Below, one piece after another: positions 3,582 through 64,000 of a stretch of DNA of 64,000 nucleotides (positions are counted from its first letter, which is position 1; each line of letters opens with the position of its first letter). Source of the DNA: Squalus acanthias (Eukaryota); NCBI GenBank assembly GCA_030390025.1, contig CM059437.1:53134001-53198000 (forward strand). The letters are read 5' to 3'. Position numbers and translations under genes: made by a program. The notes under the pieces are model-generated. The model was not told where the DNA came from. It did not search any database and saw only the letters and a program-made list of their open reading frames with translations.

Positions 3582-3853
3582 GATGGGTGATTCCCTGGAT
3601 CCTTAGTTCTGAGTTCGTCCAAAAAGTTTGAGTGCGAAGTTTTTCAAAGTTGATTAAATTGTCGTAAGAATGAGCCTTACACGTGGTGAACTTAAAGTAA
3701 GCTTTAATCAACTAAAAAGGTGCTACATACAAAAGAGGTCTTACTCTATGCCTCTCCAGGATCCAACTGATCAGTTCAGTATTTATCCTGGACTAATCAC
3801 AGGAAGTGATGCAATAAAGTTCGAGTCACAGGAAGCTGTATTGTGTTACCACA
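1..3853 (-). mobile_element. Ty3/Gypsy LTR retrotransposon, copy A (5' LTR 3660-3853; 3' part runs off the window)
   Basis: The 194-bp LTR TGTGGTAAC...TTACGACA (minus strand) differs at about 2 sites from the LTRs at 49662 and 53908. The internal region is the reverse complement of about 49856-53520. It is inserted in the 3' part of a LINE, and the flank TGTAC (3854-3858) is the predicted TSD. Confidence 0.95.
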
Positions 3854-35669: not shown

Positions 35670-37860
35670 AAACAACAACAACTTGCAATTATATAGCGCC
35701 TTTAACGTAGTAAAACGTCAAAAGACGCTTCACAAGAGCTTATGAAACAAGATTTGACACCGAGCCACATAAGGAGAAATTAGGACAACTGACCAAAAGC
35801 TTGGTCAAAGATGATGATTTTAAAGGAGGAGAGAGAGGGGGAGTGGTTTCGGGAGGGAATTCCAGTGTTTGGGGCCTAGGCAGCTGGAGGTATGGCTGGC
35901 AGTGGTGGGGCGATGGAAATCGTGGATGCACAAGAGGCCTGAATTGGGGAGTGTAGAGATCTCGGATGATTGTAGGGCTGGAGGAGGTTACAGAGATTGG
36001 GAGGGTGAGGCCATGGAGGGATTTGGAAACAAGAATCAGAATTTTAAAATAAAGGCGTTGTCACACCGGGAGCCAATGTAAGTCAGCAAGCACAAAGGTA
36101 ATGCATGAATGGGACTTTGTGCAAGTTAGGATATGAGCAGCAGAGCTTCGGATGAGCTCAAGTATATGGATGGTGGAAGATGGGAAGCCAACCAGAAGAG
36201 CATTGGAAAAGTCAAGTAGAGTGGTAACAAAGGCAAGGATGACAGTTTAGCAGCAGATGAACTGAGGTGAGGTGGAGTCAGGCAATGTTACGGAGGTGGA
36301 AGTAGGCGGTTTTTGTGATGGAGTGGATATGTGGTCATCTCACGGTCAACTGATACACCAAGGATACGAATGGTCTGGTTTAACCTCAGACAGTTGCCAG
36401 GGAGAGTGCTGGAGTCGGTGGCTAGGGAATGGAGTTTGTGGCGGGGATCGAAGACAATCTTTTTGAGTCTGCCAAATTTTTAGTTGGAGGAAATTTCTGT
36501 TCCTCCACTACTAGATGGCGGACAAGCAGTGCGATAACTTAGAGACAGTGGAGGGGTCGAGAGAGCTGGTGGTGAGGTAGAGCTGGCTGTCATCAGTGTA
36601 CATGTGGAACCTGACATTGGCCCATATTTTCCGATGCCTACGATGTACGAGCTGTGTACACACCCTTATAATCCTCTTGACAGATCGCACGCCTGCCCTG
36701 GAGAAGGGGATCTGCGGGTGGATTTTTCCGCTTTCTGCAGAACCTCCGCCCGCTGAAATCCCTTAAAAAACTTACGCCTGCTAAAAGCTTTTACCAGCAA
36801 AAGAGTTTAAAAAGTAAAAAAAAAATCCACGCATTTATAATGTAAAAATACTTTAAAAAAAGGTAAGTTTCTTTTTAGCCCGGTAAAAAACTTGAATTAT
36901 ATTTTTCAATAAATTAAATTTTTGTTCAAAATATTTAATTTAATGTAATTTTAACTCATTTTAAAAACATCATTTTTTTTTTATTTATTTAATGTTGTAG
37001 TGTCTTTTTTCAGTGATCCCCATTCATACTTTTGACAGGTCATACCATGGACTCACATGACTCAGGTGATCCCAGGGACGCTTGCGAACTGCCTGCGCCC
37101 CTGGGATCCCTGGGCATTGGTGCATGCGCACCACGAGAGGCCCAGGAGCGGAAGAGTCCAGACCTCGGGAGCCCTCAGGTAAGGGCGTAGATTTTTTCCC
37201 GATTGGAGGCATCCGCACGCAGGATGCTTCCTATCGGAAATTACGGGCCAATTTTCGTATGATGTTGCCAAGGGGCAGCATGTGGATGAGAAATGGTAGG
37301 GAACCAAGCATAGACCTTTGGGGGACTCAAGAGGTAACGGTGCAGGCCCAGGAAAAGAAGCCATTGCAGGTGATTCTCTGGCTACCAATTGATAGATAAG
37401 AATGGAACCAGGCGAGGGCAGCTCGACGATGGAGGAGAGGTATTGGAGGAGGATGGTGTGGTCAATCATGTCAAAAACTGCAGAAAGATCGAGAACGATG
37501 AGGAGGGATAGGTTAACATGATCACAATCATATAGGCAGTAATTTATAACTTTCATAAGGTTCTGTTTCAGTACGGTGGCGGGGCGGAAACCTGATTGGA
37601 GGGATTCAAACATACATAATCGGGAAAGATGGGCACAGATTTGCGAGGTAAAAAGAGAGATTGGAGATGGGGGTGGTAGTTTGAAAGGACAGAGGGATTC
37701 AGGATGGGGTTTTTTTAAGGTGAGGGGAGTTGACGGCAGATTTGAAGGGGGGAGGACAGTAGCTGAGGAGAGGAAACTTTTAACAATGTTTAGCTAATAT
37801 GGGGGCCAGAAAGGGAAGTTTGATAGGAATAGAGACCAGGGAGCAGGAGGTGAGTCTCAT
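35670..37860 (-). mobile_element. L2 LINE fragments interrupted by a MITE
   Basis: Peptide FESLQSGFRP..LLIVLDLSAVFD, with an L2 tail near 35670-35720. Confidence 0.75.
36619..37249. mobile_element. Harbinger-type MITE
   Basis: Termini GGCCCATATTTTCCGAT...ATCGGAAATTACGGGCC around an AT-rich centre. Confidence 0.7.
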
Positions 37861-37869
37861 GAAATATGA

Positions 37870-40555
37870 TAGGGCATAGAATTGAATGGTTACAGCACAG
37901 AAGGAGGCAATTCGGCCCGTCGAGCCCATGCCAGCTCTCTACAAGAGCACTTTAGCTAGTCCCACTCCCCCGCCCTTTCCTCGTACCACTGCAAACATTT
38001 TTCCTTCAGTTATTTATGCAAGTCCCTTTTGCAAGCCACGATTGAATCTGCCTCCACCACCCTCTCAGGCAGTGCATTCCACATCATAACCATTCGCTGT
38101 GTAAAAAAGTTTTTCTTCATGTCGCTTTTGGTTCTTCTGCTAATCACCTTAAATCTGTGTCCTCTGGTTCTTGACCCTTTTGACAATGGGAACAGTTTCT
38201 CTCTATCTACTCTGTCTAAACCACTCATGATTTTGAACCACACTCCTCTCAACCTTCTCTGCTCGAGGAAGAAAAACCCCAGCTTCTCCAGTCTATCCAC
38301 ATAACTGAAGTCCCACATCCCTGGAACCATTCTTGCACATCTTTTCTGCATCCTCTCCAAAGCTTTCACATCCTTCCTAAAGTGCGTTGCCCAGAATTGG
38401 ACACAATACCCCAGTTGAGGCCGAGCCAGTGTTTTAGAAATGTTCCACATAAATTCCTTGCTTTTGTACTCTGTGACTCTATTTATGAAGCCCAGGGTCC
38501 TGTATGATTTTTAATTGCTTTCTCAAACTGCATTGCCACCTTTAACGATATGTGCACATATACCCGCAGGTCGCTCTGTTCATGCAGCCCCTTTAGAATT
38601 GTATCCTTCAGTTTATATTGCCTCTCCTCATTCTTCCTAACAGAATGCATCACTTTGCACTTTTCTGCGTTAAATTTAATCTGGCACGTGTCTGCACATT
38701 CCACCAACCTGTCTATGTCCTCTTGAAGTCTATCACTATGCTCCTCACTGTTCACTGTACTTCCAAGCTTTGTGTCATCTGCAAATTTTGAAATTCTGCC
38801 CTGTACACCCAATTCCAGGTCATTAATATATGTCAAGAAAAGCGGTGGTACTAGTACCGTCCCCTGGGGAACACCACTGCCTACCTTCCTCCAGTCCGAT
38901 AAACAGCCGTTCAACACTACTCTCTGTTTCCTGTCACTTGCACAATTTTGTATCCATACTGCCACTGTCCCTTTTATTCCATGGGCTTCAAATTTGCTGG
39001 CAAACCTATTATGTGGCACTTTATCAAACGCCTTTTGGAAGCTCATGTACACCACATCAACCGCATTACCCTCATCAACCCTCTGTTACCGCATCAAAAA
39101 TCTCAATCAATTTAGTTAAACACGATTTGCCTTTAACAAATCTGTGCTGACTTTCCTTAATTAATCCATCCTTGTCCTAATGACTGTTAATGTTGTCCCT
39201 GATTATCGTTTCTAAAAGCTTCCCCACTACGAGGTTAAACTGACTGTAGTTGCTGGGTTTATCCTTGCACCCTTTTTTGAACAAAGGTGTAACATTTGCA
39301 ATTCTCCAGTCCTCTGGCACCACTCCCGTATCTAAGGAGGATTGGAAGATTATCGCCAGTATCTCCACAATTTCCATTTTTACTTCCCTCAGCATCCTTG
39401 GATGCATCCCATCCGGTCCTGGTGACTTATCTGCTTTAAGTACAGTCGGTATTTCCAGTGCCTCCTCTTTATCAATATTTATCCTGTCCAGGATCTTAAC
39501 TACCTCCTCTTTCACGATGACTTTGGCAGCATCCTATTCCTTGGTAAAGACTGGTGCAAAGTGTTCATTTATTACCTCAGCCATGCCCTCGGCCTCCATG
39601 TGTAGGTCTCCATTTGGTCACTAATTGGCCCCACCCCTCCTCTTACTACCCGTTTATTATTTCTTTGCCTATAGAAGACTTTTGGAATACCTTTTATGTT
39701 AGCTGCCAATCTATTTGCATACTCTCTCTTTGCCCATGGTATTTCCTTTTTCACTTCCCCTCTGAACTTTCTATATTCAACCTGCTTCTCACTTGTATTC
39801 TCAACCTGACATCTGTCATTCCGCCCCTTTTTCCACTTCATCATACTCTATCTCTTTCGTCATCCAGGGAGCTCTGACTTTGGTTGCTCTAACTTACCCC
39901 TTGTGGGAATGTACCTCGATGATACCCAAACTATCTCCTCTTGAAAGGAAGCCCTTTGTTCGATTACAGATTTGCCTGCTAATTTTTGATTCCGATTTAC
40001 CCAAGCCAGATCCATTCTCAACACTCTGAAATTTGTCGTCCTCCAGTTAAGTAGTTTTACTCTAGATTGCTCCCTGTCCTTTTCCATAGCTAATCTAAAC
40101 GTTATGATACTATGATAACTGCTCCCTAAATGTTCCCCTACTGACACTTGCTCCACTTGACCCACCTCATGCCCCAGAAACAGTTACAGCAATGCCTCCT
40201 TCCGCATTCGGCTGGAAACGTACTGACCAAGAAAGTGCTCCTGAACACATTTCAGAAATTCGTCCCCCTCTCTGCCCTTTACACTATTACTATTCCAGTC
40301 TATATTAGGATAGTTGAACTCTCCCATTAACTCTACTCTATAGTTCTTACACCTCTCTGATATTTCCCAGCAAATTTGCTCCTCTATATCCTTCCCACTA
40401 GTTGGTGGCCTATAGAATACACATAGTAGTGTAATGCCACCTCTATTGTTTCTTAACTCTAACCAAATAGATTCATTCCTTGACCCCTCCAGGATATCCG
40501 CTCTCTCCAGCACTGTAATACTCTCCTTAATCAATACTGCCACCCCACATCCTTT
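37870..40555 (-). mobile_element. Degenerate CR1 ORF2
   Basis: Motifs VFYRPP, KSPGPDG, FQKAFDKV, GVPQG, FADD and LEQRRLRG. Confidence 0.9.
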
Positions 40556-42528: not shown

Positions 42529-45500
42529 TCGAAGTCTGAAAGGACGCACCATCAATTAGGCTGTTTATATCGTTCGTCCATATTTAATCCCTACAGTCAG
42601 AGTTGCTCTTTTTAAGAGGGGTCAGATAACTGAATGTTGCGCTAAATATAATAAAAAAGAAAGCTCTTACACTTATATAGCACCTTCCACACCCCCGGAA
42701 ATGTTAAAGTGCTTCACAGGCAAAAAGTAGTTTAGAAATGTAATCGCTAAAGTAGGGAAATACTGCAGCCAAGTTGCCCACAGTAAGGCCCCACTAACTG
42801 CAAGGAAATAAAAAATCTATTTTTCGTCCTGTTGGCTGAGAGATAAAGATTCGCCAGGACTCCTGGAAAATCACCCTACGCTTCTTCAAGAAGTGTCCCG
42901 TGAGAGGGCAGATAGGGCATTCGTTTGACCCCATCCAAAAGACTAAGCCTCTGACAAAAGAGCACTCTCTTAGGACTGCACTGAGGCATTTGAACCCAAA
43001 ACCTCCCGGTTCAGAGGTCAGAATCCTACTACTGAACCAAGGTTGACACTAAGGGGTAGATCTTGCCTTTGTGCAATAGTGTAAAAAGGGCAATAGCAAA
43101 TCGGGAGCCAGTTTTAAGGTCTCTCAAGACTTTTATTTCAATTGCACTTAATTGAAATTAAAAAAGGAGAGATGCAAAACGGTCGGCCGACTCGCTATTG
43201 CTCGAATTACCCCTCAGTCTGTATACGTTCCTCCTTCTATTAAGGCCCTCAAACAATGATTAGTGAGCACAGACACAGACAGTGAGTTAAAGTGATGCCG
43301 TATAATTCAGCGGATGAAAGACAGCTTGCATTAAGTGTTATTCCACCGGGTTGTCAGTGGTAGAATTTAGCGATAGGAACGCCAAATTACCTGGAATTTT
43401 AGGAAGATCGGAATAAATGGCAGAAGTAAAGGATCTCCACAAAGTGAGTAATGTTTCAGCGAGAGTTTATTCGTTTTTTTCGTGATTGCTTTGATAACAG
43501 GTCGTTTCCTCATTTTATTGAGCCATTTTATCGGAGCAAGTCAAATGCCCTGTGAACACAGTGGGAGTGTGTGCTGGATTATTTCATTTACTTATAGCCT
43601 CAATGGACTCCGTCTCCACAATGACTGTGCGGTGGTCACTGCTACAAATGCTGTCATGGAGAGATGCATCTGCGACAGGTAGATTGGTGAGGACGAGGTC
43701 AAGTAGGTTTTTCCCTCGTGTTGGTTCTCTCACCACCTGTCGCAGGCCCAGACTGGCAGTTATGTCCTTCAGGACTCGGCCAGCTCGGTCAGTAGTGGTG
43801 CTACCAAGCCATTCTTGGTGATGGACATTGAAGTCCCCCAGAAGTAAATTCTGTGCCCTTGCTACTCTCAGTGCTTCTTCCAAGTGGTGTTCAACATGGA
43901 GGAGTACTAATTCATCAGCTGAGGGAGGGCAGTAGGTAGTAATCAGCAGGAGGTTTCCTTGCCCATGCTTGACCTGAAGCCATGAGACTTCATGGGGTCC
44001 TGAGTCAATGTTGAGGATTCCCAGGGCCACTCCTTTCCGAATGTAAACCACTGTTGCTTGACTGGTCTGTGGGACAGCTCTCCCAATTTTGGCACAAGTC
44101 CTCAGATGTTGGTGAGGAGGATTTTGCAGGATCGACTGGGCTGGGTGTGCTGTTGCTGTGCCCATAGCCGGTGCTGAGGTCGATGCCGGGTGGTCCATCT
44201 GGTTTCATTCTTATTACGTTTCATACCGGTTAGTTACAGCTGAGTGACTTGCTCGGCCATTACAGAGGGCAGTTAAGAGTTAACAACATTGATGTGGGCC
44301 TGGAGTCACATATAGGCCAGACGGCAGATTTACTTCACTACTTCACTAAAGGACATTAGTGAACCAGATGGATTTTTATGACAATCCGATAGTTTCATAG
44401 TTACCTTTACTGATACTAACTTTTTATTCCAGATGTATTTAATTATCTCAATTTAAATTCCCCAGCTGCCATCTCTGGATCATTAGTCCAGGCCTCCGGA
44501 TTACTAACCCAGTGACATTACCACTATGCTACCGTTACCCTCTGTGAGAGAGCATAATAGAGGAGATCACTGATGCCTTGGAAGCCCCCGATCTACTCTG
44601 TGTACGTTTTGTTGAAATTGGTCGAGACACTCACGGCAAGAATTGGATGGATAGATGTATAAAGTTGGATTGGAAAGATTGCTTTGTGGTGGCTTTTATT
44701 GCAGCATTGTGGTCAAGAGGACGCTGTGATGGTCAGTAACAGAGGGAAGGTAAGGTGTGGCACAAATGTTGAGAAGTGAATTGGGGTTGTGATCACTGGT
44801 ACCACGGGCGGATGATTCCATCTCAGTTATCCCAGCCAGAAAGGGGCTGTCTGGGTTGCATCCTTCCTTCTGCTTCCTCCTCTTCTGCTTCCTCCTCTTC
44901 TGCTTCCTCCTCTTATACTTCCTTCTCTTCTGCTTCCTCTTCTTCTGTTTCTTCCTCTTCTGCGTCTTCCTCTTCTGCATCTTTCGCTTCCCTCTGTGAG
45001 TGGATGCTATAAATCTGAAATGACATCATAAAACGCTGGAAATACTCAGCAGGTCAGACAGCATCTTGACCTGAGACGTGGACTCTGTTTCTCGCTCCAC
45101 GGATGCTGCAAGACCTGCTGAGTATTTGTAGCATTTTCTGTCTTCTCAGAGGCCTCCCTTTACAACCCGAGGCCTTGCAAGCATCCAGCAGCATGGCCTA
45201 CACACTTAAAAAAACTTTTAACATCGATTGCAGCAAGCCACTACTTCAGTAAAATCAAAAACCCCAGTCCAAAAGCTTAAATGCCAACATACCTGAAAGA
45301 TATGTGTGTCCATTTAAGAGGTGCTGTCAGCACCTCTGTTAGTCTGCTTGCTCGTTGCGTTTACCTGGTTTGTTTAGAGCCCAGCGATGAACTCAGCGCT
45401 AGGATCGAAGTTCACTGTGGTGACATTAAGTCGGCATTGCACGCCGACTGATGTCAACACACTGCCATTTTTCTTTGCAGGGTGATAACTCTTAACGGCA

Positions 45501-46019
45501 GTGCTATCGGGCCCACGAAAATGCAGGATGCCTTGGGACTGGTCATCAGCTGGTGGAACAGTGGCTGCCGCTGCTTTCTCAACATTATGCTATGCTGACA
45601 GGTGTCGAAAACCACACGAATTTCATTGCTGCCGAGTCTAAACCAGGAAGTATAAATTGGAATATTTAATTCACTAAAATAATGTACAGAATGCAAAATA
45701 AAAAAGGGAAATAAAGATAGGATTTAGAGAGAGAGAGATAAAAGAGACATAACGAAAATGTATTGGCCTAGAATTTGTAGTGGGTAGTAACAGTGAATGA
45801 ACAGCATTCGCTGTTATTACCCCTTTGAAACTGAACGCAAACTCAGGAGTTAGTGCCTGCGCATCCTAATGTGGAAATCCTGAAGTTGCAGTTAGTTATT
45901 CACTGCTCCGACACTGGCTGCGCTGTGCTCTCCACCCCTCCCCCAATCCCCCGACCCCAGAGCCAACAATAAGGGAAATCAGTGAAACTTGGACTTTTCA
46001 ATGGTAATATTAATTCCAT

Positions 46020-48650
46020 TAATAATGGAAAACAGGGAAATGGCAGAAACTTTGAACAAATATTTTGTATTGGTCTTCATGGTAGAAGACACTAAAAGCA
46101 TCCCAATAATAGTTGATAATCAGGGGGCAATAGGGAGGGAGAAACTTAAAACAATGACTATCACTAGAGTAAAAGTACTAGGCAAACTAATGGAACTACA
46201 GACTGATAAGTCCCCTGGACCTGATGGCCTACATCCTAGGGTCTTCAAAGAAGTGGCTGCAGAGATAGTGGTTGCGTTGCTTGTAATCTACCAAAATTCC
46301 CTGGATTTTGGAGAGGTCCCAGCAGATTGGAAAACCGTAAATGTAACGCCCCTATTCAAAAAAGGAGGGAGGCAAAAAGCAGGAAACTATAGGCCAGTTA
46401 GCCTAACATCTGTCATTGGGAAAATGCTGGAATCCATTATTAAGAAAGTAATAGCAGGACATTTAGAAAATCATAATACAATCAAGCAGAGTCAACACGG
46501 TTTATGAAAGGGAAATCGTGTTTGATTAATTTATTAGAGTTCTTTGAGGATGTAACGAGTAGGGTGGATAAAGGGGTACCAGTAGATGTAGTGTATCTGG
46601 ATTTCCAGAAACCATTTCATAAGATGCCACGTAAAAGGTTACTGCACAAGATAAGAGCTCACGGGGTTGGGGGTAATATATTAGCATGGATAGAGGAGTG
46701 GCTAACTAATAGAAAACAAAGAATCGGGATAAATGGGTCATTTTCCGGTTGGCAAACTGTAACTAGTGGGGTGCCACAGGGATCAGTGCAGCAGCCTCAA
46801 CTATTTACAATCTATATTAATGACTTTGATGAAGGGACCGTGTGTACTGTCACCAAATTTGCTGATATTACAAAATAGGTGGGGAAGCAAGTTTTGAGGA
46901 GGACACAAAGGGGGGAATTTTGCCAGAGCTCAGTGGGCGGATTTGGAGGTGGGGCTGCTGGTAAAATTACAAAGATTGACAGCGGGTCCCGAACCCACTG
47001 TCAGCCCGCCTCCAGACAATCTTCCCAAGTGTCGGGTCCCTGATTTGCACAGTGACCCGACACCTAGGGGCGGGAAGATGATTATAGGCAGTTTACTGCC
47101 TGTTAACAGGTAGTTAACAGGCAGTTAAGAGGCTTTTCTCAATTTTGCCAGGTCGACTGCGGGCTTCCCGACGTCCAGACACCACGCCAGGGTAAGTGTG
47201 GCGTGCTGTGAGTCTACTGTAAGATTTGTGCATTGATGACAGAAGTGGTGTGAAGGATCCAATGGTACACTGGTGAGTTTCAGAGGTAAGAAATTGTTGG
47301 GGAAATCATTTTTAATCTATTTAGACTTTTCTGTAGGTAATAAGGTTTGAAGTGTTTGTGTAGTCTCACCCCATTGGGCGAACCTCTCTCACCAGTGACA
47401 GATCGCTTCTGTAAACTCACCTGCAGCTGTCATCTGTTTTATCCGAAGGAGAGACTCTCTGGAGCGCCTGCGTGCAAGGGCTCACCTTTGTACAGTGAGT
47501 GGCAGTGTTTACGGCACCTCAATGCTGTCAAACACTGAAAAGCCATGTCAAAAAAAAATGAGCATGTCCCCTTTAAGAAAACCGGCAGTGACGCGTCATC
47601 AACTGATGTCATCTGACACCGGCTTTCTCTGAATTGGCCGGAAAACGCACAGAGCGGGCTCAACAAGGCCAATTGACGAAAAATTATGTCGGTGCGTCGG
47701 GCGTCGTTGGGGTCGGGATCAGAACCCGCAAGTCAGCTGACCCACTCCCAACTCGCACTGAATGGTAAGATCGTGCCCAAAGAGTCTGCAAAGGGATGTA
47801 AATAGGTTAATAGAGTGGGCAAAAATTTGGCAGATGGAGTATAATGTGGGAAAATGTGAGGTTATCCACTTTGGTAGGAAAAATTAAAAAGCAAATTATT
47901 ATTTAAATGGAGAGAGTCTACACAATGCTGCGGTACAGAGGTATCTGGGGGTCCTCGTACATGAAACACAAAAAGTTAGCATGCAGGTACAGCAAGTAAT
48001 TAGGAAGGCAAATGGAATGTTGGCCTTTATTGCAAGGGGGATGGTATATAAAAGTATGGAAGTCTTGCTACAACGGTACAGGGCGCTGGTGAGACCATAC
48101 CTGGAGTACTGCGTGCAGATTTGGTCTCCTTATTTAAGGAGGGTTATACTTGCATTGGATGCAGTTCAGAAAAGGTTGGCTAGGTTAATTGCTGACATAA
48201 AGGGGTTGTCTTATGAAGAAAGGTTGAGCAGGTTGGGCCTGTACTCATTGGAGTTTAGAAGAATGAAAGGTGATCTTCTTGAAACATATAAGTTTCTGAG
48301 GGGGCTTGACAGGGTAGATGCAGGGAGGATGTTTCCTCTCGTGGGGGAATCTAGAACTAGTGGGCACAGTTTCAGGATAAGGGGCCACCCATTTAAAACG
48401 GAGATGAGGAGGAATTTCTTCTCTCGGAGGGTCGTGAATCTTTGGAATTCCCTACCCCAGCGAGCTGTGGAGGTGGAGTCATTGAATATATTCAAGGCGG
48501 AGATAGACATATATTTGAGCTATAAGGGAGTCAAGGGTTATGGGGAGCGGGCGGGAAAGTGGCGTTGAGGCCAAGTTCAGATCAGCCTTGATTTTATAGA
48601 ATGGCGGGGCCGAATGGCCTACTCCTGCTCTTACTTCTTATATTCTTATG
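46020..48650 (+). mobile_element. CR1 ORF2 3' half with MITE 46910-47778 (paralog of 11152-14446)
   Basis: RT ORFs at 45989-46878 and 47981-48568. Confidence 0.9.
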
Positions 48651-49661
48651 TAATATCGCTGTTAAATACCCCATTAAAAGTTACACCTTGTTGGATTAGG
48701 TGTAACTGGGGTTTTAAAAGCATACTGACTTCTAAACATACGTTATGGCCCATAAAAACTTTTTTCTCTATTATATTAAAAATTACAATTTTTAAGAAAC
48801 TTTAAAAACGTTATATTTTTCAAAGTTTGCTTATATTTATTTCAGGTATACCTTTTTCCCATGTGAGAGCCCCAATCTGTGCTTTACACGCTGTAACATT
48901 TTTTAATAATCAGGATAAAAGGAGCTTCTTCCTGGTTCCCTGTCTGTGAGAATTCTGCCTTGTGAGTGGCTGCTTAGAGAGCTTGTTGACGTCACAGCAG
49001 CTGGCCTTAGGAATTCCTCACTATACTGCACTGATCTCAATTGCAAGCCGAAAAAGCCAAAGTTCTCGCAACAGAGATTGCGTGATCTTTGTGAGCAGCT
49101 TTCTTCGGGTCCAATGCGGAATGACTTTGCTTCACCTCTGACCACAAATTATGGGGCAGATTTTTTTTAATATGTAAGAAATCTCCAACAATAATTAAAA
49201 TCTGAAGGAATGAGATGTCACACTTGTAAAATTAAATTTTCAGTGCTAGGGAGGTTGTTTAGCAGTATCACACAATTAAAAAAAACACTTATAAATGAAT
49301 GCCCCAGTCCTAATATTTTCTGGCGTGCTTAGTGGGAAAGTGCAGCAGCTTCACGCCCTCACATGGATTTCAATGCCGAGTCTATCGGCGAGGTACCGTT
49401 GTAGCAAAGCTTGAAGAGAAGCAGGGCATATTCGACAGCAACTGCCGGATTTGCACTTTTAATTGCGTTTTTGCGGACTCCAGAAGTTGCTGGCCAGTTT
49501 ACTCCATAATAGCGGTGAGCGCTGTCAGCCTCACTGTTATTCTTAACACAAAATCCGGGCTATTGCGTATAAGCTGGACTTAAAGCATAGAATGTTACAA
49601 CGTCACTCGCAGCGGGACTGGACACACTCAGGTGATTGCAAGGCACATCGAGTTTGATCAC

Positions 49662-52600
49662 TGTGGTAACACAATACAGCTTCCTGTGACTCGAACTTTA
49701 TTGCATCACTTCCTGTGATTAGTCCAGGATAAATACTGGACTGATCAGTTGGATCCTGGAGAGGCATAGAGTAAGACCTCTTTTGTATGTAGCACCTTTT
49801 TAGTTGATTAAAGCTTACTTTAAGTTCACCACGCGTAAGGCTCATTCTTACGACAATTTAATCAACTTTGGAAAACTTCGCACTCAAACTTTTTGGACGA
49901 ACTCGGAACTAAGGATCCAGGGAATCACCCATCATGGAAAACATCCTTAAACCATCGTGTCTTGACTTGGACCCAAACACCCCAGCAGCCGGTAAGGTGT
50001 GGAAACACTGGTATCGCACATTTGACAATTTTCTGGAATATTGCAAGGCTGATGATGACTCAAAGTTGCGGATACTCATCAACTGTGTCACCCCGAATGT
50101 ATTTCAGTATGTGGAGGAATGGGGCAGTTACGAGGAGGCAATTCGGACGCTTAAGAGACTATATACTAAGACACCGAATGAGGTCTATGCCAGACATCTA
50201 CTAGCTACAGCCCAACAAGGGCCGGAGGAATCCATTGATAAATTCCTCCAAGAGCTTCGCAGACTTAGTATGGACTGTAACTTTCAGGCGGCCTCAGCTG
50301 AGCTGTACCGTGAAGAAATGATCCGTGATGCTTTCATCTGCGGGCTTGCCTCCCCATTTATACGCCAGCGTCTACTGGAAAGTAAGACACTTGAGCTTCA
50401 GAGAGCTTATGACATGGCTTGCTCTCTAGATCTGGCAAAAAGAAATGCAGACCTTTATACAGTGCCCAGACCTCGGTCTACTGCCTTAACTACAGTCAGG
50501 CAATTTAAGAGGCCACAGGTGAACTCTACTAGGGAGGTCTTTATCCCTGACGATCAATCTGATGACTTCACTGATGAAGAGGATGATGACCCCACTGTGG
50601 CAGCCTCTTGGCAATCTAAGAAATGCTTCTTTTGTGGTGATGAGTTTCACCCTCGGAAATTCTGCCCTGCTCGCAATGCGTTTTGCAGTCATTGCAACAA
50701 AAAGGGTCAATTTGCAAAGGTTTGCCTATCAAGAGCCTCTACGAGGGCTTATCAAGCTAAGTCCTACCGAACTGCCCCGGTAAGGGCCTATCAAGATGTT
50801 CCGGCTAACATCTATCATGCTTCCTCTCGGGTTTCCTCTCGAAGAAACACACCTAGAGTTTCAGCCACTCTTTGTGCAACGACACCAATTACAGCTGCTT
50901 GTCCTCAGAACCTATTCCATGTAGCTACAAAAGCATCAATTAATGGACATACTTTAGATGCCTTAATTGACTCATGTAGCACTGATAGTTTCATTGGGGA
51001 ACAGATTGTTGCAGAGTTAAAGCTACATGTTTTCCCATCGGACCAGGCAATTGCGATGGCTCAGTCATCACTTAATACCAGAATTTCTGGCTTTTGTATG
51101 GTTGAAATAACACTTAATGGTCACAGGTATCCCTCCACCCGGCTTTCGGTGCTCAAGGATTTATGTAGTGATCTTATCTTAGGGCTGGATTTTCAAAAGC
51201 AGCATAAGAAGCTCACCATTGAGTTCGGCGGATCCAAACCTGAACTCACTATTTCTAATATACGACCTCGATTACCGTTCTGTGCATTGTCAGCAGCTTC
51301 ACTGGATGAACCCTCACTGTTTACCAGTATCCCTCCTCGATGCAAACCGATTATAACAAAGTCACGACGTTTCAGTCAGGAAGACCAGTCTTTTATTGCG
51401 GCTGAGATTTCTCAGCTTTTAGCAGAGGATATCATCGAGCCTTGTTCATCGCCATGGCGCGCCCAGGTCGTTATTGTTAAGAACCCTCTACAACCTCACA
51501 AGAAACGGCTGTGCATTGACTATTCACAGACCATCAATCAATATACGGACTTGGACGCATACCCATTGCCGCGCATCGATGATATGGTTAATAAACTGGC
51601 TGAGTACACGGTGTTCTCAACATATGATCTGAAAAGTGCCTATCATCAGGTACCCTTGAAAGTCTCAGAAAAGCAGTATACGGCCTTTGAAGCCAATGGA
51701 TGGCTGTATCAATTTCGTCGCCTCCCCTTTGGGGTCACTAATGGAGTGGCTGTCTTCCAGCGAGCAATGGATGACCTGGTCAAACAGGAAGACTCGAAGG
51801 ATACGTTTCCTTATCTGGACAATATTACTGTCGCAGGTCGCAATCAGCGGGAACATGACGCCAATCTCCAACGATTTTGGGATGCACTCCAGCACCGTAA
51901 TTTGACATTAAATGCGGCTAAATCCATTGAGTCACAACCAACCATCAACATCCTTGGCTATTGTGTGGGCAATGGCATCATTAAACCTGACCCTGAAAGG
52001 CTTCGCCCACTCCAAGAACTCCCGCCACCTAAGAATCCGGCCTCCTTGCACCGGGCCCTCGGCCTGTTTGCATACTATGCTAAATGGATTCCTAACTTCT
52101 CGGACCGAATCCAACCTCGACTGAAGGCCAGCACATTCCCACTAGACACAGCGGCTGTTGCAGCCTTTAACCTCCTGAAAAAACAGTTGGAGAAAGCGGC
52201 TCTTCACTCCATCGATGAGAGTCTTCCTTTTGTTGTTGAGTGTGATGCCTCGGATGTGGCGATCTCGGCCACTCTGAATCAGGAAGGTCGTCCAGTGGCA
52301 TTTTTGTCCAGGACTTTTCAAGGGGCTGAGCTACATTATCCTCCAGTCGAGAAAGAAGCTACAGCCATCATAGAGGCAGTATGGAAGTGGAGTCATCTCC
52401 TAGCTCGCCAGCACTTTACCTTACTCACGGACCAGCGATCGGTCGCCTTCATGCTCGATAATCGAAAACGGACCAAAATTAAAAATAATAAAATCCAGTT
52501 TTGGTGGCTGGAATTGGCCTCTTTTGGTTACACCATCCACTATCGACCTGGCAAGGAGAATGTGGCTCCGGATACCCTCTCACGAGCATTCTGCTCCGCC

Positions 52601-54101
52601 ATGGCACCCTCTACGCTCGTAGACATCCATGATGGGTTGTGTCATCCGGGCGTTACTCGCATGCTACACTTCGTGCGGTCCCGAAATCTCCCATTCTCTA
52701 CCGGGGATGTAAAGAAGATGTGCTCGGACTGCAGAATCTGTGCGGAATTGAAACCTCCGTTTTTCCGCCCCTCGGGTGGTATACTCATACATGCGACCCA
52801 GCCAATGCAACGGCTTAGCATCGATTTTAAGGGGCCGTTGCCCTCTTCAACTCGCAACACTTATCTGTTGACCATGGTCGATGAGTATTCCCGTTTTCCG
52901 TTTGCCTTTCCCTGCCCCAATATGCTGACGACCACGGTTATCAGCTGCCTTGAGCAGGTATTTGCTTTCTGTGGCATGGCATCCTATGTTCATTCGGATC
53001 GGGGCCCTTCTTTTATGTCAGGAGAACTCAAGGCCTATCTCTCGGAACGGGGTATTGCTGCCAGCAGAATGACGCCTTATCATCCGGTCGGGAATGGGCA
53101 AGTCGAGCATTTTAACGCTATCATCTGGAATGCGGTATGTCTGGCTTTGAGATCTCGGGGCCTACCCAACCAGCAATGGGAAGCAGTACTTCCAGACGCA
53201 TTACACTCCACACGGTCCCTCCTTTCGACCGCCACAAATACGACGCCTCATGAACGGTTCTTCCGATTTCAGCGTCGCTCATCCTATGGGATATCTCTCC
53301 CGTCGTGGCTGACTACACCGGCACCAGTGCTACTCCGAAGATATGTCCGGGCGTCTAAGAATGACCCCCTGGTAGATGAAGTTGAGCTCACTGACGTCAA
53401 CCCTACCTACGCCTATATTCGGTATCCTGACGGTCGGGAATCTACCGTGTCATTGCGGGATCTGGCTCCCTGCCCGCCGAAACATAGAGGGACACCAGGG
53501 GATGATATTGTACCAGGCACATCTCTGGGCTCGCCAGGTGCCTCTCATCACGATCTGGATCTGACGCCGGCTGGTACCTCACTCCAGCGTGCCGACCTGG
53601 GGCAGACTGACTATGAGCCCGTCGGGGCTCGCACGCGCAGCCACGATCCACCCCATACCGTACGCTCGGAAACGGATCTGCCACAGCCCTGCCCGACACC
53701 CGTTCGGGCACCAGTACACAGTCAGGATCGTCCTGACCCCTCACAGAGCGGGCTGGATCACTCGGACTGTGGTCCACGGCCCGCGGTGGGTAAACGGGCT
53801 AGGGGCCCTCTACCGCTACGAGAACCCAAACGGGTGCGGCTCTCCCTCGTCCAGCGGCTACGAAATGGAGGGAGCATCCCGGCCTCCTAATCTTTTGGGG
53901 GGGAGAATGTGGTAACACAATACAGCTTCCTGTGACTCGAACTTTATTGCATCACTTCCTGTGATTAGTCCAGGATAAATACTGGACTGATCAGTTGGAT
54001 CCTGGAGAGGCATAGAGTAAGACCTCTTTTGTATGTAGCACCTTTTTAGTTGATTAAAGCTTACTTAAAGTTCACCACGCGTAAGGCTCATTCTTACGAC
54101 A
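49662..54101 (+). mobile_element. Full-length Ty3/Gypsy LTR retrotransposon copy B
   Basis: LTRs 49662-49855 and 53908-54101 (194 bp, TG...CA, 1 mismatch). The 5-bp TSD ATCAC is at 49657-49661 and 54102-54106, and the PPT GGGGGGGAGAA at 53897-53907. The empty site is at 15445-15449 in copy A. Confidence 0.98.
49934..53890 (+). CDS. Gypsy gag-pol polyprotein (Gag-ZnF-PR-RT-RNaseH-IN), single open frame
   Basis: 1318 aa in PR-RT-RH-IN order, with HHCC (HDGLCH..CSDCRIC) and D-D-E (SIDF, HSDRG, QVE). Relative to copy A the protease DSG is DSC and a knuckle His is Gln. Confidence 0.95.
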   Translation: MENILKPSCLDLDPNTPAAGKVWKHWYRTFDNFLEYCKADDDSKLRILINCVTPNVFQYVEEWGSYEEAIRTLKRLYTKTPNEVYARHLLATAQQGPEESIDKFLQELRRLSMDCNFQAASAELYREEMIRDAFICGLASPFIRQRLLESKTLELQRAYDMACSLDLAKRNADLYTVPRPRSTALTTVRQFKRPQVNSTREVFIPDDQSDDFTDEEDDDPTVAASWQSKKCFFCGDEFHPRKFCPARNAFCSHCNKKGQFAKVCLSRASTRAYQAKSYRTAPVRAYQDVPANIYHASSRVSSRRNTPRVSATLCATTPITAACPQNLFHVATKASINGHTLDALIDSCSTDSFIGEQIVAELKLHVFPSDQAIAMAQSSLNTRISGFCMVEITLNGHRYPSTRLSVLKDLCSDLILGLDFQKQHKKLTIEFGGSKPELTISNIRPRLPFCALSAASLDEPSLFTSIPPRCKPIITKSRRFSQEDQSFIAAEISQLLAEDIIEPCSSPWRAQVVIVKNPLQPHKKRLCIDYSQTINQYTDLDAYPLPRIDDMVNKLAEYTVFSTYDLKSAYHQVPLKVSEKQYTAFEANGWLYQFRRLPFGVTNGVAVFQRAMDDLVKQEDSKDTFPYLDNITVAGRNQREHDANLQRFWDALQHRNLTLNAAKSIESQPTINILGYCVGNGIIKPDPERLRPLQELPPPKNPASLHRALGLFAYYAKWIPNFSDRIQPRLKASTFPLDTAAVAAFNLLKKQLEKAALHSIDESLPFVVECDASDVAISATLNQEGRPVAFLSRTFQGAELHYPPVEKEATAIIEAVWKWSHLLARQHFTLLTDQRSVAFMLDNRKRTKIKNNKIQFWWLELASFGYTIHYRPGKENVAPDTLSRAFCSAMAPSTLVDIHDGLCHPGVTRMLHFVRSRNLPFSTGDVKKMCSDCRICAELKPPFFRPSGGILIHATQPMQRLSIDFKGPLPSSTRNTYLLTMVDEYSRFPFAFPCPNMLTTTVISCLEQVFAFCGMASYVHSDRGPSFMSGELKAYLSERGIAASRMTPYHPVGNGQVEHFNAIIWNAVCLALRSRGLPNQQWEAVLPDALHSTRSLLSTATNTTPHERFFRFQRRSSYGISLPSWLTTPAPVLLRRYVRASKNDPLVDEVELTDVNPTYAYIRYPDGRESTVSLRDLAPCPPKHRGTPGDDIVPGTSLGSPGASHHDLDLTPAGTSLQRADLGQTDYEPVGARTRSHDPPHTVRSETDLPQPCPTPVRAPVHSQDRPDPSQSGLDHSDCGPRPAVGKRARGPLPLREPKRVRLSLVQRLRNGGSIPAS

Positions 54102-55427
54102 ATCACCTTGTTAATGTTGATCAGGTTTTATCTCAATGTTTTATGTACTATGTTATGACTGTTCCCTTTGTACCTTAACATATTTTCTTCTTGTATTGTA
54201 GCTTCTTTTATAACTGTAATAAAACATATATACGTTGGACCAAAGCTAACTCTAGTCTTTGAGTACCAAAGACCCAATCTAATATAAGTTTCACACAAGT
54301 GCCAGGTGCAAGAGGCCAGATTTAGGATCATAGCTGCATGGGAATAAAGTAGGCCATTCAGCCTGTCCAGCCTGTTCTGTCATTCAGTGAGATTATGTCT
54401 GATCTGTAGCTTAACTCCATCCACCTTCCTTGGCTCAATATCCGATTATAACCTTGACTCGCAAAAATCTATCGAACTCCGATTTAAAATTAATAATTGA
54501 GCTAGCACCTAATGCTTTTTGTTCGATACAGTTTCACACTTCTGCCACCTTTGCGTGAAGAATTGTTTCCTAACTTCGCTCCTGAATGGCCTGGCTCTGT
54601 TTTTTAAGACTATCTTCCCTTGTCCTAGATTCCCACACAAGTGAAAAAACTTTTTCGCTACCTACCCTATCAATTCCTTTCAAAATCCTAAAAACCTCAA
54701 TCAAATCACCCCGAAACCTTTTATTTTCCAGGGAATACAAGCCTATCTCCTCATAATCTAACCCTTGCAGCCCTGGTAACATTGTGGAGAATACGTGCTG
54801 CAATCCTTCCATGGCCAAAATTTGCAGGGCTACAGGGAAAGGGCGGGGGAGTGGGACTAGCTGAAGTGCTCTTGCAGAGATCCGGTACAGGCTCGCCACA
54901 TGGCCTCCTTCTGTGCTAAAACCATTCTATCATTCTATGATATCCGTCCTAAGATGCGGTGCCCAGAAATGTCTACTACTTTAGATACTTCCAAAAATTT
55001 CTCTAGGTGCTGAATCTGTCTGTCCTTAATTATAGAGTCCAATAACTTCCCCACAACAGATGTTAGACTAACATGTCTTTAATTTCCCTATTTCTCTCTC
55101 ATATTTCTTAAATAATGGAGTTACACTTGCAATTTTTCATTCTAAAGTGACAATTCCGGAATCGAGAGAGCTTTGGAGATTATGGCTAAATCATCTGCAA
55201 TTTCCTCACATTCTTCATTTGAAACGTTTGGATGGAAAATATCAGGAATTGTAATTTGTCCGTCTTTTGTTCTCTTATTTTTTCTCATACTGTTTTCTTG
55301 CTTACGTTAACTTTAGTGAGGTCCAGTCCTTAATTCATTATTAATTTCCCTGTAATGCCAGCCATATTATTCTCTTCCAGTACAGTGAAGATAAGTCTGC
55401 CATTTCCTTATTTTCATTTGATATATT

Positions 55428-58779: not shown

Positions 58780-60518
58780 ATGGAAGGAATGAGCAAAATT
58801 CACATCATTAAGAGAGCTCAGAATTTCAGTGATGATGACATCAGCACACTCCTCAATGAGATTGAGGCGAAGAGCCCGCGAATCCTTGGGAATGAGAAGT
58901 CGAGGGCACCGCGCAAAGGACAGATGACAGCTTGGTCAGTAGTTGCCCAGGCTGTCAGCGCGAACTCCACCATTCCATGGACAGCGGAACTATGCCACAA
59001 AAAATGTAATGATTTAATGCGATCTGCCAAGGTTTGTACAGTTATTAGAAAAGTCAACTGTAATATTTCTTTAAATTTAACTGAACTAGTTTTAAAAAGC
59101 TCTTAGATACACATGTGTTGTCAAGTGACTTCATTATCCAAGCATGTGAGCTTGCCATAAAAGTTTATGGCTTTGGGGCCAGCTCAGGGTCATCCATTGT
59201 GCTCTTATCTTGATTCCACAGGTTTGAGTTGTAAAATTTCAATTAGTGAGTGAAAAAAAATCCTGTCTCCAAAGCAGGTTGTGTCCCTGTCTCAAAGGCA
59301 CGTGGGTGGTCTCTGCAGAAAAAACTGCAGTTTCATGACGTTTCATATTTTCTGTTTTCATTTTAGAGTAAAATTATTAACAATGCCAGAGAACATGCAC
59401 TGACAAGTGGTGGTGTTGTCACACTAAGGGATTTATCCGAGCATGAGGAAAGGGTCGAGCAGCTGCTTGGAATTAGTAGCGGCCGTACAGTGCCTGCTGC
59501 CAAATCAGACATTGGGATAAGGAAAGATGAGTTGGTCTGGCCAGCTATATGTTTAAAAATGTTAGGTGTGTGTTGAATATCAGCTTCTGTGATGTGGCAG
59601 GTCATGCTTTACCTTTGCAAATGTTTAGTGTTTCCTTTCCACAGGTGGACAGCATACTTCTCACACACGGGATGAACAGTGTGTTGAGTCTGCGGCCACA
59701 GAGGACATTGGGGAAGGGGTTACAGATGCAATGGGAGCAGTAAGTGAGGTGGTGGAGGAGGAGGAGGAGGAATTTGCGCTTTGTAAGCTAGTGGAAGAGG
59801 AGGGTATGGACCCTGGGTGGCTGCACAGTACCTTTCCATCTCCTGGCCCCCCTGGCTCTGTGCGAGGCACAGATGACTGTCGTTCCACAGCCAGACACCA
59901 ATCTGATACTGCAGAGCAGGAGGGAGAAGCAGAAAGACGTTCAACGCTACGGAATGACAGAAGCTCAGGTGCAACAGATTGAAGGGTTGAGGCAAGAGAT
60001 GTGTACTCTTCATGGGAAGAAAGTTGACTCTCTTGCCTCCATCAGGTAGGGAATTGATGTTCTTGGTAAAGATGTTACTATGTCGCTTAATCAGATACTA
60101 TTGCAGTTGCAAAAAACAGATCATGTTACTATGGTGCTTAATCAGATAAATGAGTCTCTCATTCGACTCTTGCAGTTGCTTGAAACAGTTTCTGCTGCCA
60201 TTACTTTGACTCCTGCAGAACCGCCCTCACCTGCTCCCAGCGCAGAAACAGTGCAGGCCCACGCAACAACAGCTCCACCAGTCCTGATGCCAGCAAACGT
60301 TGCCTTTCAGCAGCAGCGACAGCAGCAGCAGCAACCCTATCAGGAGGCAATTGTTGAAGGGCAAGAGATGGCACACAGGGGCCTTTCAATTGGCAGCAGA
60401 GGGCTCCAGTTATGGGGAAGGGGAAAGCGCAGGAGACAGTAGGTTGTCACCTTTTGCACAATCCACCTCCTTTGACCCTCAGGCACAGATGCGAGGGGGC
60501 AAATCGTCAATTCTTTAA
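58780..60518 (+). pseudogene. Harbinger Myb/SANT-like gene copy B, disrupted
   Basis: Same motifs as 17682-19482. The exon 2 donor GT is AT at about 59527, and exon 3 has a frameshift and a stop. Confidence 0.75.
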
Positions 60519-60967
60519 TGTTTTGTTTTATTTAAATGTTAAATGTTATCGTTGCTTTTTTTATTGTAATATATATTTGTGACTGAAAGTGTATGTAACC
60601 TTTTCGTTTAAAAAGTACAGCCTCTAGTCACTTTGAAGAAAAGTCAACTTTTTTATTTGCAAAAATATTTAAAATTACAACTGTTTGAAAATTAGAAAAT
60701 AGCTCGTTTCCATCTTGAATGTCTTTACTGCACTAAGAAGCCAAAAAAGTCACTTTAACCTGTTTACAAATTTTATTCAACAAAATTATGCTTGCGAATG
60801 TTTGAAAAGTAGAAAATAGCTAGTTAACATTTAAAAGTTAAAAATTAAGAACATCAAAACTGAACCTCAAAAGTCTTTGATGCTGCAATAAAATTTCACT
60901 GTTTCATTTTAAATTGTGTCTGTTCCTTTCTTTGCGTTGCTGGGGGAGGGGGAGGTACAAGGCGACA

Positions 60968-62115
60968 CTACCTCGTGAAGGTGTTGGCTACTAGCATTTC
61001 CCGAGCAGCCTTCCTTCCGGCAGCACTTGGCTCCTCCCCATCAGGCCTGGCCACAGGCACATTGGCATCGTCCATGTCCTTCATTTCAGCAGGGAGCTCC
61101 TCTGCAGGGTTAAGGGTCAGTACTTCCCGCAGGGTAAAGTTATGCAAAGCACAACAGGCCACCACAATCCTTGCCACTTTCAGAGGAGAATACTGCAAAG
61201 TCCCCCCTGACCTGTCCAGGCACCGGAACCGTGATTTCAGAACCCCGATTGTCCTTTCCATCACTTGCCATGTGGATACGTGTGCCTAGTTGTATCTCTC
61301 CTGAGCCTCATTATTGGTCTTGCGGTATGGAGTCATTAGCCATGGTCTTGGCGGGTAGCCCTTGTCGCCCAATATCCATGCAGATCCTGGAAGCAATGTG
61401 CTGAGGGTGCCATATAAGTCCGAGTTACGGAGGACGAAGGAGTCATGAGCACTTCCCCGGTGATCTGCATTCACGGTTAGGAACCTGAAGTGCACATCAT
61501 AGACTATCATGACATTCAATGAATGAAAACCTTTCCTGTTCATGTATGTCACAGATGAATCTAGTGGTGCCTTCAATGCAGCATGGGTTCCATCGACGGC
61601 CCCAATCACTTTGGGGAATCCAGAAATGCTATAAAATGCAAGGGCAATCTCCTTTTGATGACGAGTGACAAATCTAAGTCTATGAACTCTGAAGCCCTAC
61701 GGAAAATGGCATCTGTGACCTGGTGAATGCAGGCCAATGCAGCACTCTGGTAGATTTTGGAAATGTCACCGGTGCCTGCCTGAAATGACCCACTTGCAAA
61801 GAAGTTCAATGCTGTGGTTCCCTTCAAGTTCACTGACAAGGCAGTGCGGGTCTTCGAATGTGTTTGAAGTTCCTCCTTTAACATGTCACATAGTCGGCTG
61901 ATTGCCTCTTTACTGAAGCGCAGCTTCCTCACACACAACTCCTCCGACAGCATCTCAAATGACAGCCTCTCCCTGTACACTCTCTGGGGTGGGCAGTAGT
62001 TCCTCCTGATCAGGAGACGGTGATGGTTCCTCAGTCTTCTTTGTTGTTCCCTGGCGTTTCCAATTCTCTGATACCCAATAGCACCGAGGATCAGGGCAAC
62101 ATCGTCAAAGGGCAT
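60968..62115 (-). pseudogene. Harbinger DDE transposase copy B, disrupted
   Basis: Motifs GAVDGTH, NRKGFHS, LGDKGY and ERTIGVLKSRFRCLD. There is a frameshift near 61640 and a TAG at 61286-61288. Confidence 0.9.
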
Positions 62116-64000
62116 GTTTCTCCCTCACAGGCTTCATCTTTAAACAGATGAAGTACTTGTAAGGAAAAATTGGAAAGAGTTGTAAAAGTAATTTTAATAA
62201 AGTGAGTGGCTGGAAAATCACGTCGGGCTATGGTGGGAAACGTGCGGTATCGGATTGGGAACACGTCATACCCGCCTAATGAATATCACGGCCCGAGATG
62301 ATTTTCTAAGAGCTTAAACATTTTCACAAAGTCATACATGCAATTTTTAAAGGGCATGGAAAAGTTAACATGTAATTAATTGATAGTTTCTGGCATAATT
62401 TTTTAAAACTTTAGTAAATGTTAAATAATTCATTTTTAAACAGACATTTTCACATTTAAGAAAATGAAATCTAATTCAATAGACCTTGCACACAGCAAGA
62501 GTTGCTCTTTATAAGTACAATACTCAAAACAAGATTCAAAACCGTTTTTAACAAATTAAAGTTGATAAAAACTTACCTCAGGCTTTGTACAAAGAACTTT
62601 GCTCACTTTCACAATTAAAAATGTTCCATTTCCAAGCCCACTGCTGAAAGAGTTCTTCTTCCTGCAGCTTCTTCAGGTAGAATGCAAGCTGTACGTCTGC
62701 TTTTACTAGGCGCAGCTGTTTCGGACGTACCTGCACTGAAGCATTTGAGAAAAAATGGAACTTTTATCCAGTAGCGCTGCCTATACTGCGCATGCGTTTG
62801 ATCTCTCAATCCCTTTCTTGACAGAACGGAAATGACGGTGTCCAGCGCATGCGCTGTGCATGCCTGAAACCGGCATTTCCGATGTCGCTGCGGGTGAGTA
62901 CACAGTGAGCACCCACCCGTAGGGATCGGAATTTCCGGGCCAATAAGAATGAAGCCGGACGGTCCACCCGGCATTGACCTCGGCACCGGCTATGAACACT
63001 GCAATGGCACACCCAGCCCAGTCAACCCTGCAAAGTAACAGCACTGTGAGAGTACCTTCACCACACAGATTGCAGCGGTTCAAGAAGGCAGCTCACCACC
63101 ACCTTCTCAAGGGCAACTAGTGATGGGCAATAAATGCTGGCCTTGCCAGCGACGCCCAGATCCCATAATCGAATTTTTAAAAAAGGGAGGAAGCAGAAGG
63201 AGAAGGACGGATGCAACCGAGACAGCCCCTTTCTGGCCAGGATATCTGAAGATCGAATTAACTGCCTGCGGTACAAGTGACCACAACCCCAATTCCCCTT
63301 TCAACATTAGCGACACACCTTACCTTCCCTCTGGTACAGACCATCACAGCGTCCTCTTGGTCACAATGCTGCAATAAAAGCCACCACAAAGCAATCTTTT
63401 CAATTCAACTTTATACATCTATTCATCCAATATGACAGCAAGAAATCAACTCATCACCTATATGCATTCTCTTTTTGACTGTCTATTTGACTGCCTTTGC
63501 CTATCCTACTGATGTCACGCAGTGCTACCCCAGTGGCTGCAGCATGACTGGTGGAAGGCTGCTGAATTTCAATGGGGGGACATTGCAAATGTCCTTGCTG
63601 GTCGACCTTGAGGAGCTGGTGGCTGGGTGTGTCACTTTGAGTGTTGCAGTTTCTTCTTCCTCTTCTTCTTGTTCTTCTTCACTATCCTTTCCCTCTTAAT
63701 GGCCAACCATTGGCTGTCAGGCTGGATTTCTTGGGGGTGTGAAATGAGGAAGGCACAAGGGTGGAGTTGTGGTGAGGGGAGGGCGGGAAAGCAAGGGGTG
63801 CATGCCAGAAGTAGGTAACATACTTCTGTCATATCATAATCTTGTATCCTTTCCGCAGTTGCTTGACCTGTTCACACATGCAACAGCTCCCCTGCAGAAG
63901 GCACTATGCTGGACCAGGTGTCCGATGCAGGAAGATATCAATAAATTGGTCAGGTGGGCAGAACAGTGGCAAATGTAATTCAATCCGGAAAATTGTGAGG

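Follow-up and report, generated by a model that had tools for sequence, protein, structure and literature searches.

The window considered here, a 64,000-nucleotide stretch of contig CM059437.1 from Squalus acanthias (assembly GCA_030390025.1), carries at 49662-54101 a Ty3/Gypsy LTR retrotransposon, as evidenced by TG..CA long terminal repeats (LTRs), a target-site duplication (TSD), a polypurine tract (PPT), and the order protease-RT-RNase H-integrase (Table 1). The 3' LTR differs from the 5' LTR at 1 of 194 positions. The single gag-pol reading frame encodes Gag with CCHC knuckles, protease, reverse transcriptase (RT) with a YLDN motif, RNase H, and integrase, in that order. A second copy, copy A, is inverted at the window start and runs off the window edge; it is flanked by the TSD GTACA, and its LTRs differ at 2/194 positions. 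An earlier note on this DNA described twin CCHC knuckles and no recognizable chromodomain. The second point is borne out, as the gag-pol protein has no Pfam match to a chromodomain at an E value of ≤0.1. The first holds for copy A and for 16/16 other copies, in which both knuckles are present, but in the copy at 49662-54101 only the first knuckle fits C-X2-C-X4-H-X4-C.

Table 1. Features of the retrotransposon at 49662-54101 and of copy A (window positions)
Feature	Position	Strand	Remark
Left target-site duplication, ATCAC	49657..49661	+	TSD
5' LTR, 194 nt, TG..CA	49662..49855	+	
12-bp inverted repeat; the 8-nt loop is the TATA-like box GATAAATA (49728-49735)	49716..49747	+	
Candidate upstream transcription start, inferred (TATA+30, T/G step)	49758..49758	+	
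Self-primer site AGTTGATTAAA; Inr-like TTAGTT at start, ATTAAA poly(A)-type hexamer at end	49802..49812	+	
End of minus-strand strong-stop DNA, taken as the inferred RNA cut (49812/49813)	49812..49814	+	Breakpoint common to 8 aberrant insertions
Short predicted hairpin directly 3' of the cut	49813..49825	+	Predicted fold
Predicted U5 hairpin, GCGTAAG/CTTACGA	49834..49852	+	Predicted fold
One-base spacer after the LTR's CA, unpaired	49856..49856	+	Watson-Crick at +1 in 0/26
Primer-binding site TTTAATCAACT, without TGG	49857..49867	+	
gag-pol, single ORF, 1325 codons stop to stop, first ATG at 49934	49913..53890	+	
Polypurine tract plus AA before the 3' LTR	53897..53907	+	
3' LTR	53908..54101	+	
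3' copy of the self-primer site	54048..54058	+	
Right target-site duplication, ATCAC	54102..54106	+	
Copy A 5' LTR, with self-primer site at 3703-3713	3660..3853	-	
Copy A primer-binding site, next after its 5' LTR	3648-3658	-	

The element belongs to a young, large Gypsy family (family 1): a 31-nt LTR word has 3,787 exact matches in the host genome, which sets a minimum for the number of LTRs and is equivalent to ~1,900 elements, and a 5-bp TSD flanks 14/16 other full-length copies. The host also harbors a sister subfamily (398 matches) and a second family (family 2) whose RT is ~80% identical to that of family 1. A search of the host genome for an AATAAA-type sister family gave 0 matches. 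In another subfamily (L233 and L234, at G000:C1:12120100-12125000 and 14301400-14306300), the true PPT is immediately preceded by an additional PPT-like run and a repeat of the initial 37 to 40 LTR bases. Many retrovirus-like loci with a YVDD RT and long LTRs (L151-L187) are present in the same genome. Elsewhere in the window lie LINE endonuclease and RT fragments (8199-10705, 37062-39085, and 43584-46507), as well as a repeat (20132-20623) that contains a DDE_Tnp_4 transposase fragment and has a 94 to 97% copy near 59500-63000.

The earlier note had proposed that this element primes reverse transcription from its own RNA, and, the second knuckle of the copy at 49662-54101 aside, the sequence features on which it built are found as described. 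AGTTGATTAAA within the LTR and TTTAATCAACT, which starts at +2 after the LTR's CA and lacks the TGG of a tRNA-CCA-type site, are exact reverse complements with clean limits; G49813 and A49856 are unpaired at the inner edge, and two T-T mismatches followed by two G-U wobbles lie at the outer edge. Copy A preserves the pair. The CGTAAG/CTTACG hairpin between the two sites appears in the predicted fold of the leader (z-score of -3.6), and the TATA-like GATAAATA starts 74 nt upstream of the self-primer site. Within family 1, the pair is exact in 30/30 top-scoring loci (the window itself included) and in 16/16 full-length copies. Moreover, pairing spans 12 nt in 12/12 viewed copies of the sister subfamily and 13 nt in 19/20 loci of family 2. 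As a control served a young Gypsy family of the same genome (L169-L171), which by its motifs we take to be Mag-like and which has a 1,335-codon ORF and the tRNA-type, TGG-containing site TGGCGACGAG; its own-LTR match is only 4 nt (P = 0.43).

To place the pair in a wider context, 125 homologues were gathered, of which the named ones come from cnidarians, crustaceans, a nematode, a tunicate, a catshark, and a ray. A YLDN or YxDN variant replaces YxDD in the RT of 93/125 homologues and likewise in 16/16 recent host copies. The loci sampled for covariation comprised 80 from metagenomes and 10 from metagenome-assembled genomes (MAGs), with the Gag start covered in 41. Loci L032, L060, L061, and L062 (no LTR upstream), L064 (without the CA-N-TTY motif), and L110 (a duplicate of L108) were left out; with the two host families added, 37 elements yielded 26 representatives at 85% RT identity. 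The LTR end was fixed by an LTR pair in 14 representatives and by the CA-N-TTY motif in 12, a choice that is partly circular, and the 26 are not fully independent, as some share ancestry (L196/L198 and L199/L031). Clade members on contigs binned into bacterial MAGs (L193-L202) probably reflect host contamination. Two loci have unusual leaders: L063 carries two binding sites, 56 nt apart, after two CA ends (L063:138-246), and L193 has a similar short duplicated LTR end. By eye, polypyrimidine runs ending in CAG, which resemble splice or trans-splice acceptors, are seen at, or up to ~65 nt before, the paired site in L039, L064, L075, L079, L083, L195, and L199.

Across the clade, the site at +2 pairs with an LTR segment ending in a poly(A)-type hexamer, and both covary. 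The covariation of the two 11-mers that the earlier note had suggested looking for is evident among the 26 representatives, which have 19 distinct 11-mers and changes on both sides in 8 of the first 11 columns. Watson-Crick pairs are found at +1 in 0/26 representatives but at each of +2 to +11 in 25 to 26; farther out, they number 24 at +12, 22 at +13, 13 at +16 and at +17, and 6 at +18, with paired lengths ranging from 10 to 19 nt. On a scale of 12, a site scores 11.6 against its own LTR versus 8.1 across families, and own-LTR pairing exceeds cross-family pairing as far as +17, with no excess beyond. All 26 representatives pass a selection-corrected null at P values of ≤0.013. Among the elements defined by an LTR pair, 17/21 have an exact match of at least 11 nt from +2, three have 7 to 8 nt before a mismatch, and one is mismatched at +3; 20/21 do better than shuffles (P ≤ 0.021). 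Chance complementarity has in its favor the AT-rich motif and two other, unrelated exact inverted repeats of 11 to 12 nt within the 4.4 kb of the window element. It is nevertheless refuted by the fixed position, the covariation, and the shuffle nulls, and we assign it next to no probability; for the window element itself, base composition predicts 1.1e-4 chance matches to the 11-mer within the LTR, and an 11-nt match was reached in 1/1000 dinucleotide shuffles.

The same comparison bears on whether a host tRNA, a half-tRNA, or another fixed small RNA primes, with the LTR match being secondary. Among the 26 representatives, columns +2 to +4 and +11 hardly vary, as a fixed primer might require, and half-tRNA priming is known in Copia elements (PMC6317226). 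However, the sites lack TGG, the 19 different 11-mers each match their own LTR, and an exact-pattern search for the 11-mer before a T-loop motif gave 8 candidate loci, of which 0/8 were a tRNA. A fixed small RNA thus appears extremely improbable as the primer.

If the self-primer is released by a cut after A49812, strong-stop DNA should end at LTR nt 152, and errors during first-strand transfer should leave breakpoints at that position. Among family-1 LTRs whose ends are intact and that lack 35 to 158 nt, an untargeted census revealed one and the same 134-nt deletion in 7 LTRs. There were no deletions of 66 to 127 nt, the class with 35 to 65 nt missing consisted of two artifacts and three singletons, and no other junction in the census was recurrent. 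The 134-nt deletion joins AGCTT (nt 17-21) to AGCTT (nt 151-155) and occurs in both LTRs of four insertions, which have the TSDs CTCAC, GTACC, ATATC, and CAACA and differ in their internal deletions. A 40-nt marker that is also present in intact copies is found in three of these insertions and absent from the fourth, so the four need not descend from one ancestor. Two longer microhomologies (6 nt) elsewhere in the LTR went unused. Of the singletons, one with the TSD CCCAC joins LTR nt 194-151 to AA plus the LTR start, and two solo LTRs have deletions that break elsewhere, at ~nt 144 and ~nt 104.

Deletions shorter than 35 nt were searched at the predicted cut site only. This targeted search returned 25 matches (12 point changes and 13 junctions) and added two insertions in which each LTR is missing 21 nt, as well as a second end-joined copy (nt 194-151 to AA-TG), which is without a clean TSD; AA-TG is accordingly present as a joined cDNA end in two aberrant copies. 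In total, eight aberrant insertions fall into three junction types (four with the 134-nt deletion, two with the 21-nt deletion, and two end joined), and all eight break within LTR nt 151-153 (49812-49814) or within a microhomology that includes this position. From these breakpoints we strongly infer that the 5' end of the template lay at 49812-49814 during strong-stop synthesis and that the RNA would have been cut there. The cut was mapped in one family, family 1. Family 2 has no LTR deletions of 41 to 164 nt and is without a 5-nt microhomology starting at its cut. The predicted hairpin 3' of the cut recurs in 5/26 families, a weak enrichment over a null with a mean of 1.35 and a maximum of 5. 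A reading of L216 as a loop inversion was rejected; its 40-nt duplication is the subfamily marker, which intact copies have too.

A rival reading gives the duplex another role. The HIV-1 poly(A) hairpin hides the poly(A) signal of the 5' LTR, and the pairing described here could serve the same end, with another RNA or a protein as the primer. Consistent with this idea, AATAAA or ATTAAA forms the end of the site in 17/26 families, and most of the remaining families have a near variant there. Nevertheless, the start of pairing is fixed at +2, with +1 never paired, as the end of a primer would be placed; at least one family (L081) pairs without such a hexamer; and strong-stop DNA ends at the duplex edge. 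We consider hiding of the poly(A) signal very unlikely to be what the pairing is for.

With an LTR segment as the primer, plus-strand synthesis could continue into that segment, and four read-through events, all with TSDs, have this appearance (reversed-pattern controls, 0). In family 1, two copies have a binding site that runs on as exact LTR complement, for 56 nt in one and 117 nt in the other. In family 2, extensions of 297 and 1,625 nt run across the PPT at three loci, two of which are tandem duplicates (L220 and L221, at G000:C36:26986 and 33029, where the aberrant copy was duplicated with its flanks at a spacing of 6,043 bp). The events show that the site is accessible but are silent on which copy of it normally primes. 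Read-through can also arise from plus-strand strong-stop DNA annealing to co-packaged RNA, for which complementarity suffices, and the family-2 events are likewise compatible with a second-strand transfer misdirected to a partner RNA.

These copies raise the question of whether priming normally uses the site's 3' copy. On that account, the RNA 3' end is cut or trimmed to ATTAAA and anneals to the binding site, either on its own RNA or on the partner RNA, to give a long primer that is eliminated at a later stage. The two family-2 events cross the PPT, so their template was the 3' copy of the site; one family-1 event extends to U3 nt 35-40; and three of the four events depend on sequence that lies upstream of the PPT or of the TATA-like box and hence show the 3' copy rather than the 5' copy used in our main model. 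The LTR deletion to be expected from a missing 3' repeat is likewise present in the two family-1 read-through copies, and in most families pairing extends upstream of the Inr-like A. Against this, four events are few beside ~1,900 family-1 elements plus family 2. The strong-stop end at 49812-49814 needs a 5' cut or a start there, where there is no initiator, and under the established scheme of LTR replication a cut 3' copy loses the strand-transfer repeat. Routine priming from the RNA tail is therefore unlikely in our estimation, and the family-2 events fit occasional priming by a cut 3' end.

Where the RNA starts would determine the length of a primer taken from its 5' end. An Inr-like A-G is kept across the clade (A at -11 from the cut in 19/26 families, G at -10 in 24/26), with a pyrimidine-rich run before it. 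Paired lengths of at least 13 nt in 21/26 families count against a start at A49802, as does the outer pairing boundary, which has a YR step in only 6/26. The TATA-like boxes of the two host families, which lie 74 and 90 nt upstream of the site, speak against it as well; in the window element, the box would place the start near 49758. The 56-nt read-through (L215) ends at 49757-49759, that is, at TATA+30, as predicted beforehand. This end is one of four events, involves 3 nt of microhomology, and coincides with an inverted-repeat arm at LTR nt 92-99, where two other aberrant copies fold back; it lends weak support to an upstream start, and the inverted repeat can explain it instead. Both A49802 (an 11-nt primer) and a position near 49758 (a ~55-nt primer) are candidate starts on the sequence evidence. 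A primer spanning a splice junction was rejected, as the donor-like GTAAG and the acceptor-like TTTTTAG are only 32 nt apart and the unspliced LTR gives the full match. Two CTTCCTG words, presumably ETS-like motifs, lie upstream of the TATA-like box in U3.

In a quick RT tree, from which L199 and L083 were dropped for their short RT segments and which holds no named references, the clade forms one group (SH-aLRT of 98) on a long branch, separate from the retrovirus-like outgroups and from a single Mag-like row; the two host families are placed among invertebrate elements. RT-RNase H scores are 176 bits against Ty3 and 175 bits (33% identity) against the host Mag-like family. A Chromo search of the host gave host-gene-like matches, with no RT nearby at 4/4 loci examined, and a DUF4939 search for chromovirus references gave none. 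Searches with SH3_Tf2-1 and Integrase_H2C2 returned mostly retrovirus-like YVDD loci and one Mag-like family. A viral contig search with three queries had no matches.

The closest mechanistic parallel is Tf1. In the model for Tf1, as given in PMC5341516, PMC4600332, and bioRxiv 10.1101/2022.12.06.519325, the primer is released by a cut at the duplex edge. The shark element resembles Tf1/Tf2 of Schizosaccharomyces pombe, Tj1, Tosmo1-3, and the Tf1/sushi group in its Ty3/Gypsy domain order, in a binding site by the 5' LTR that is complementary to an LTR segment and takes the place of a tRNA site, and, judging from the breakpoints of the eight aberrant insertions, in a probable RNA cut at the inner duplex edge. 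In contrast to Tf1/sushi, however, a chromodomain is absent from the shark element and from 125/125 homologues, for which neither Chromo (PF00385) nor SH3_Tf2-1 (PF24626) is listed, and the three-duplex pretzel structure was not found, as a duplex pairing the loop with the 12 nt 3' of the site did better than shuffles in 0/26 representatives. The shark element further differs in its two CCHC knuckles and in a primer site ending in a poly(A)-type hexamer, as does its clade in the YLDN of 80/125 homologues and in the range of paired lengths. The RNA 5' end, which is the primer in Tf1, is a candidate primer here. Thus, the shark element probably works like Tf1 but, with its YLDN RT and with neither chromodomain nor pretzel, is not a member of Tf1/sushi.

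Other predicted self-primers are plant elements, namely, the Gypsy element Tcn1 and the Copia elements TAR, Houba, and Osr-1, according to PMC6317226. The same paper calls self-primers by a signature of at least 10 nt, starting 0 to 5 nt after the LTR and complementary to the LTR, which the shark element shares, and it already proposes self-priming outside Tf1/sushi for TAR. Unlike the shark element, Tcn1 is a chromovirus and TAR is a Copia element. Among animal elements, the Mag lineage and Cigr-1 are likewise compact, single-ORF Gypsy elements. Cigr-1 is described from a tunicate, molluscs, and annelids in PMC6238403 and PMC8556966, and the clade of the shark element also includes a tunicate protein; Cigr-1 was compared by description only. 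The host Mag-like family has a TGG site and YLDD, whereas the shark element has neither. Twin Gag knuckles are a Mag-like trait. Self-primed Gypsy families have reportedly been entered in Repbase Reports from lancelet, and these may belong to the clade of the shark element. A description of the clade as self-primed was not found in the open literature, the range of the search being short of subscription journals and Repbase; specifically, the available portions of PMC6317226, PMC3601003, PMC6238403, PMC5341516, PMC4600332, PMC11042837, PMC5006619, PMC8556966, and bioRxiv 10.1101/2022.12.06.519325 do not describe it as such.

Taken together, we propose that elements of a widespread animal Ty3/Gypsy clade probably prime reverse transcription from their own RNA, cut just behind the ATTAAA of the LTR. 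The earlier note's central idea, that elements other than the chromodomain-bearing Tf1/sushi group self-prime, has good support in the covariation, the lack of a tRNA candidate, and the strong-stop ends. By analogy with Tf1, the cutter would be the element's own RNase H, and the piece upstream of the cut would be the primer. The repeat used in first-strand transfer would then extend from 49813 to a poly(A) site ~15 to 30 nt after the hexamer, and the cDNA ends AA-TG and CA-AT would leave a 2-nt overhang for integrase. Copying of the primer during plus-strand synthesis would rewrite the binding site, which would keep the pair matched, and the 3' copy of the site may sometimes be used or copied by mistake. 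The pairing is also predicted to mask the 5' poly(A) signal. A bolder reading, which we offer tentatively as a possibility, is that this metazoan-wide, YLDN-type clade acquired self-priming independently of Tf1 and carries it out differently, with a primer that is longer than the first bases of the RNA and ends in the poly(A) signal, this primer being either a ~55-nt capped leader from near 49758 or the RNA 3' end. If so, polyadenylation and priming would both be under the control of a single hexamer-containing duplex.

In the literature cited above, self-primed reverse transcription is associated with Tf1/sushi chromoviruses and with a Copia lineage of plants. A clade without chromodomain or pretzel would widen it to a large group of animal elements, from cnidarians, crustaceans, a nematode, and a tunicate to cartilaginous fishes, and would suggest that self-priming has more than one origin. 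Aberrant copies can also be read as replication intermediates from an assembly alone, which here placed the strong-stop end within three bases, and this approach is applicable to other elements for which a primer is merely predicted. Finally, a primer end that overlaps a poly(A) signal would provide a direct, testable link between the control of RNA 3' ends and the priming of reverse transcription.
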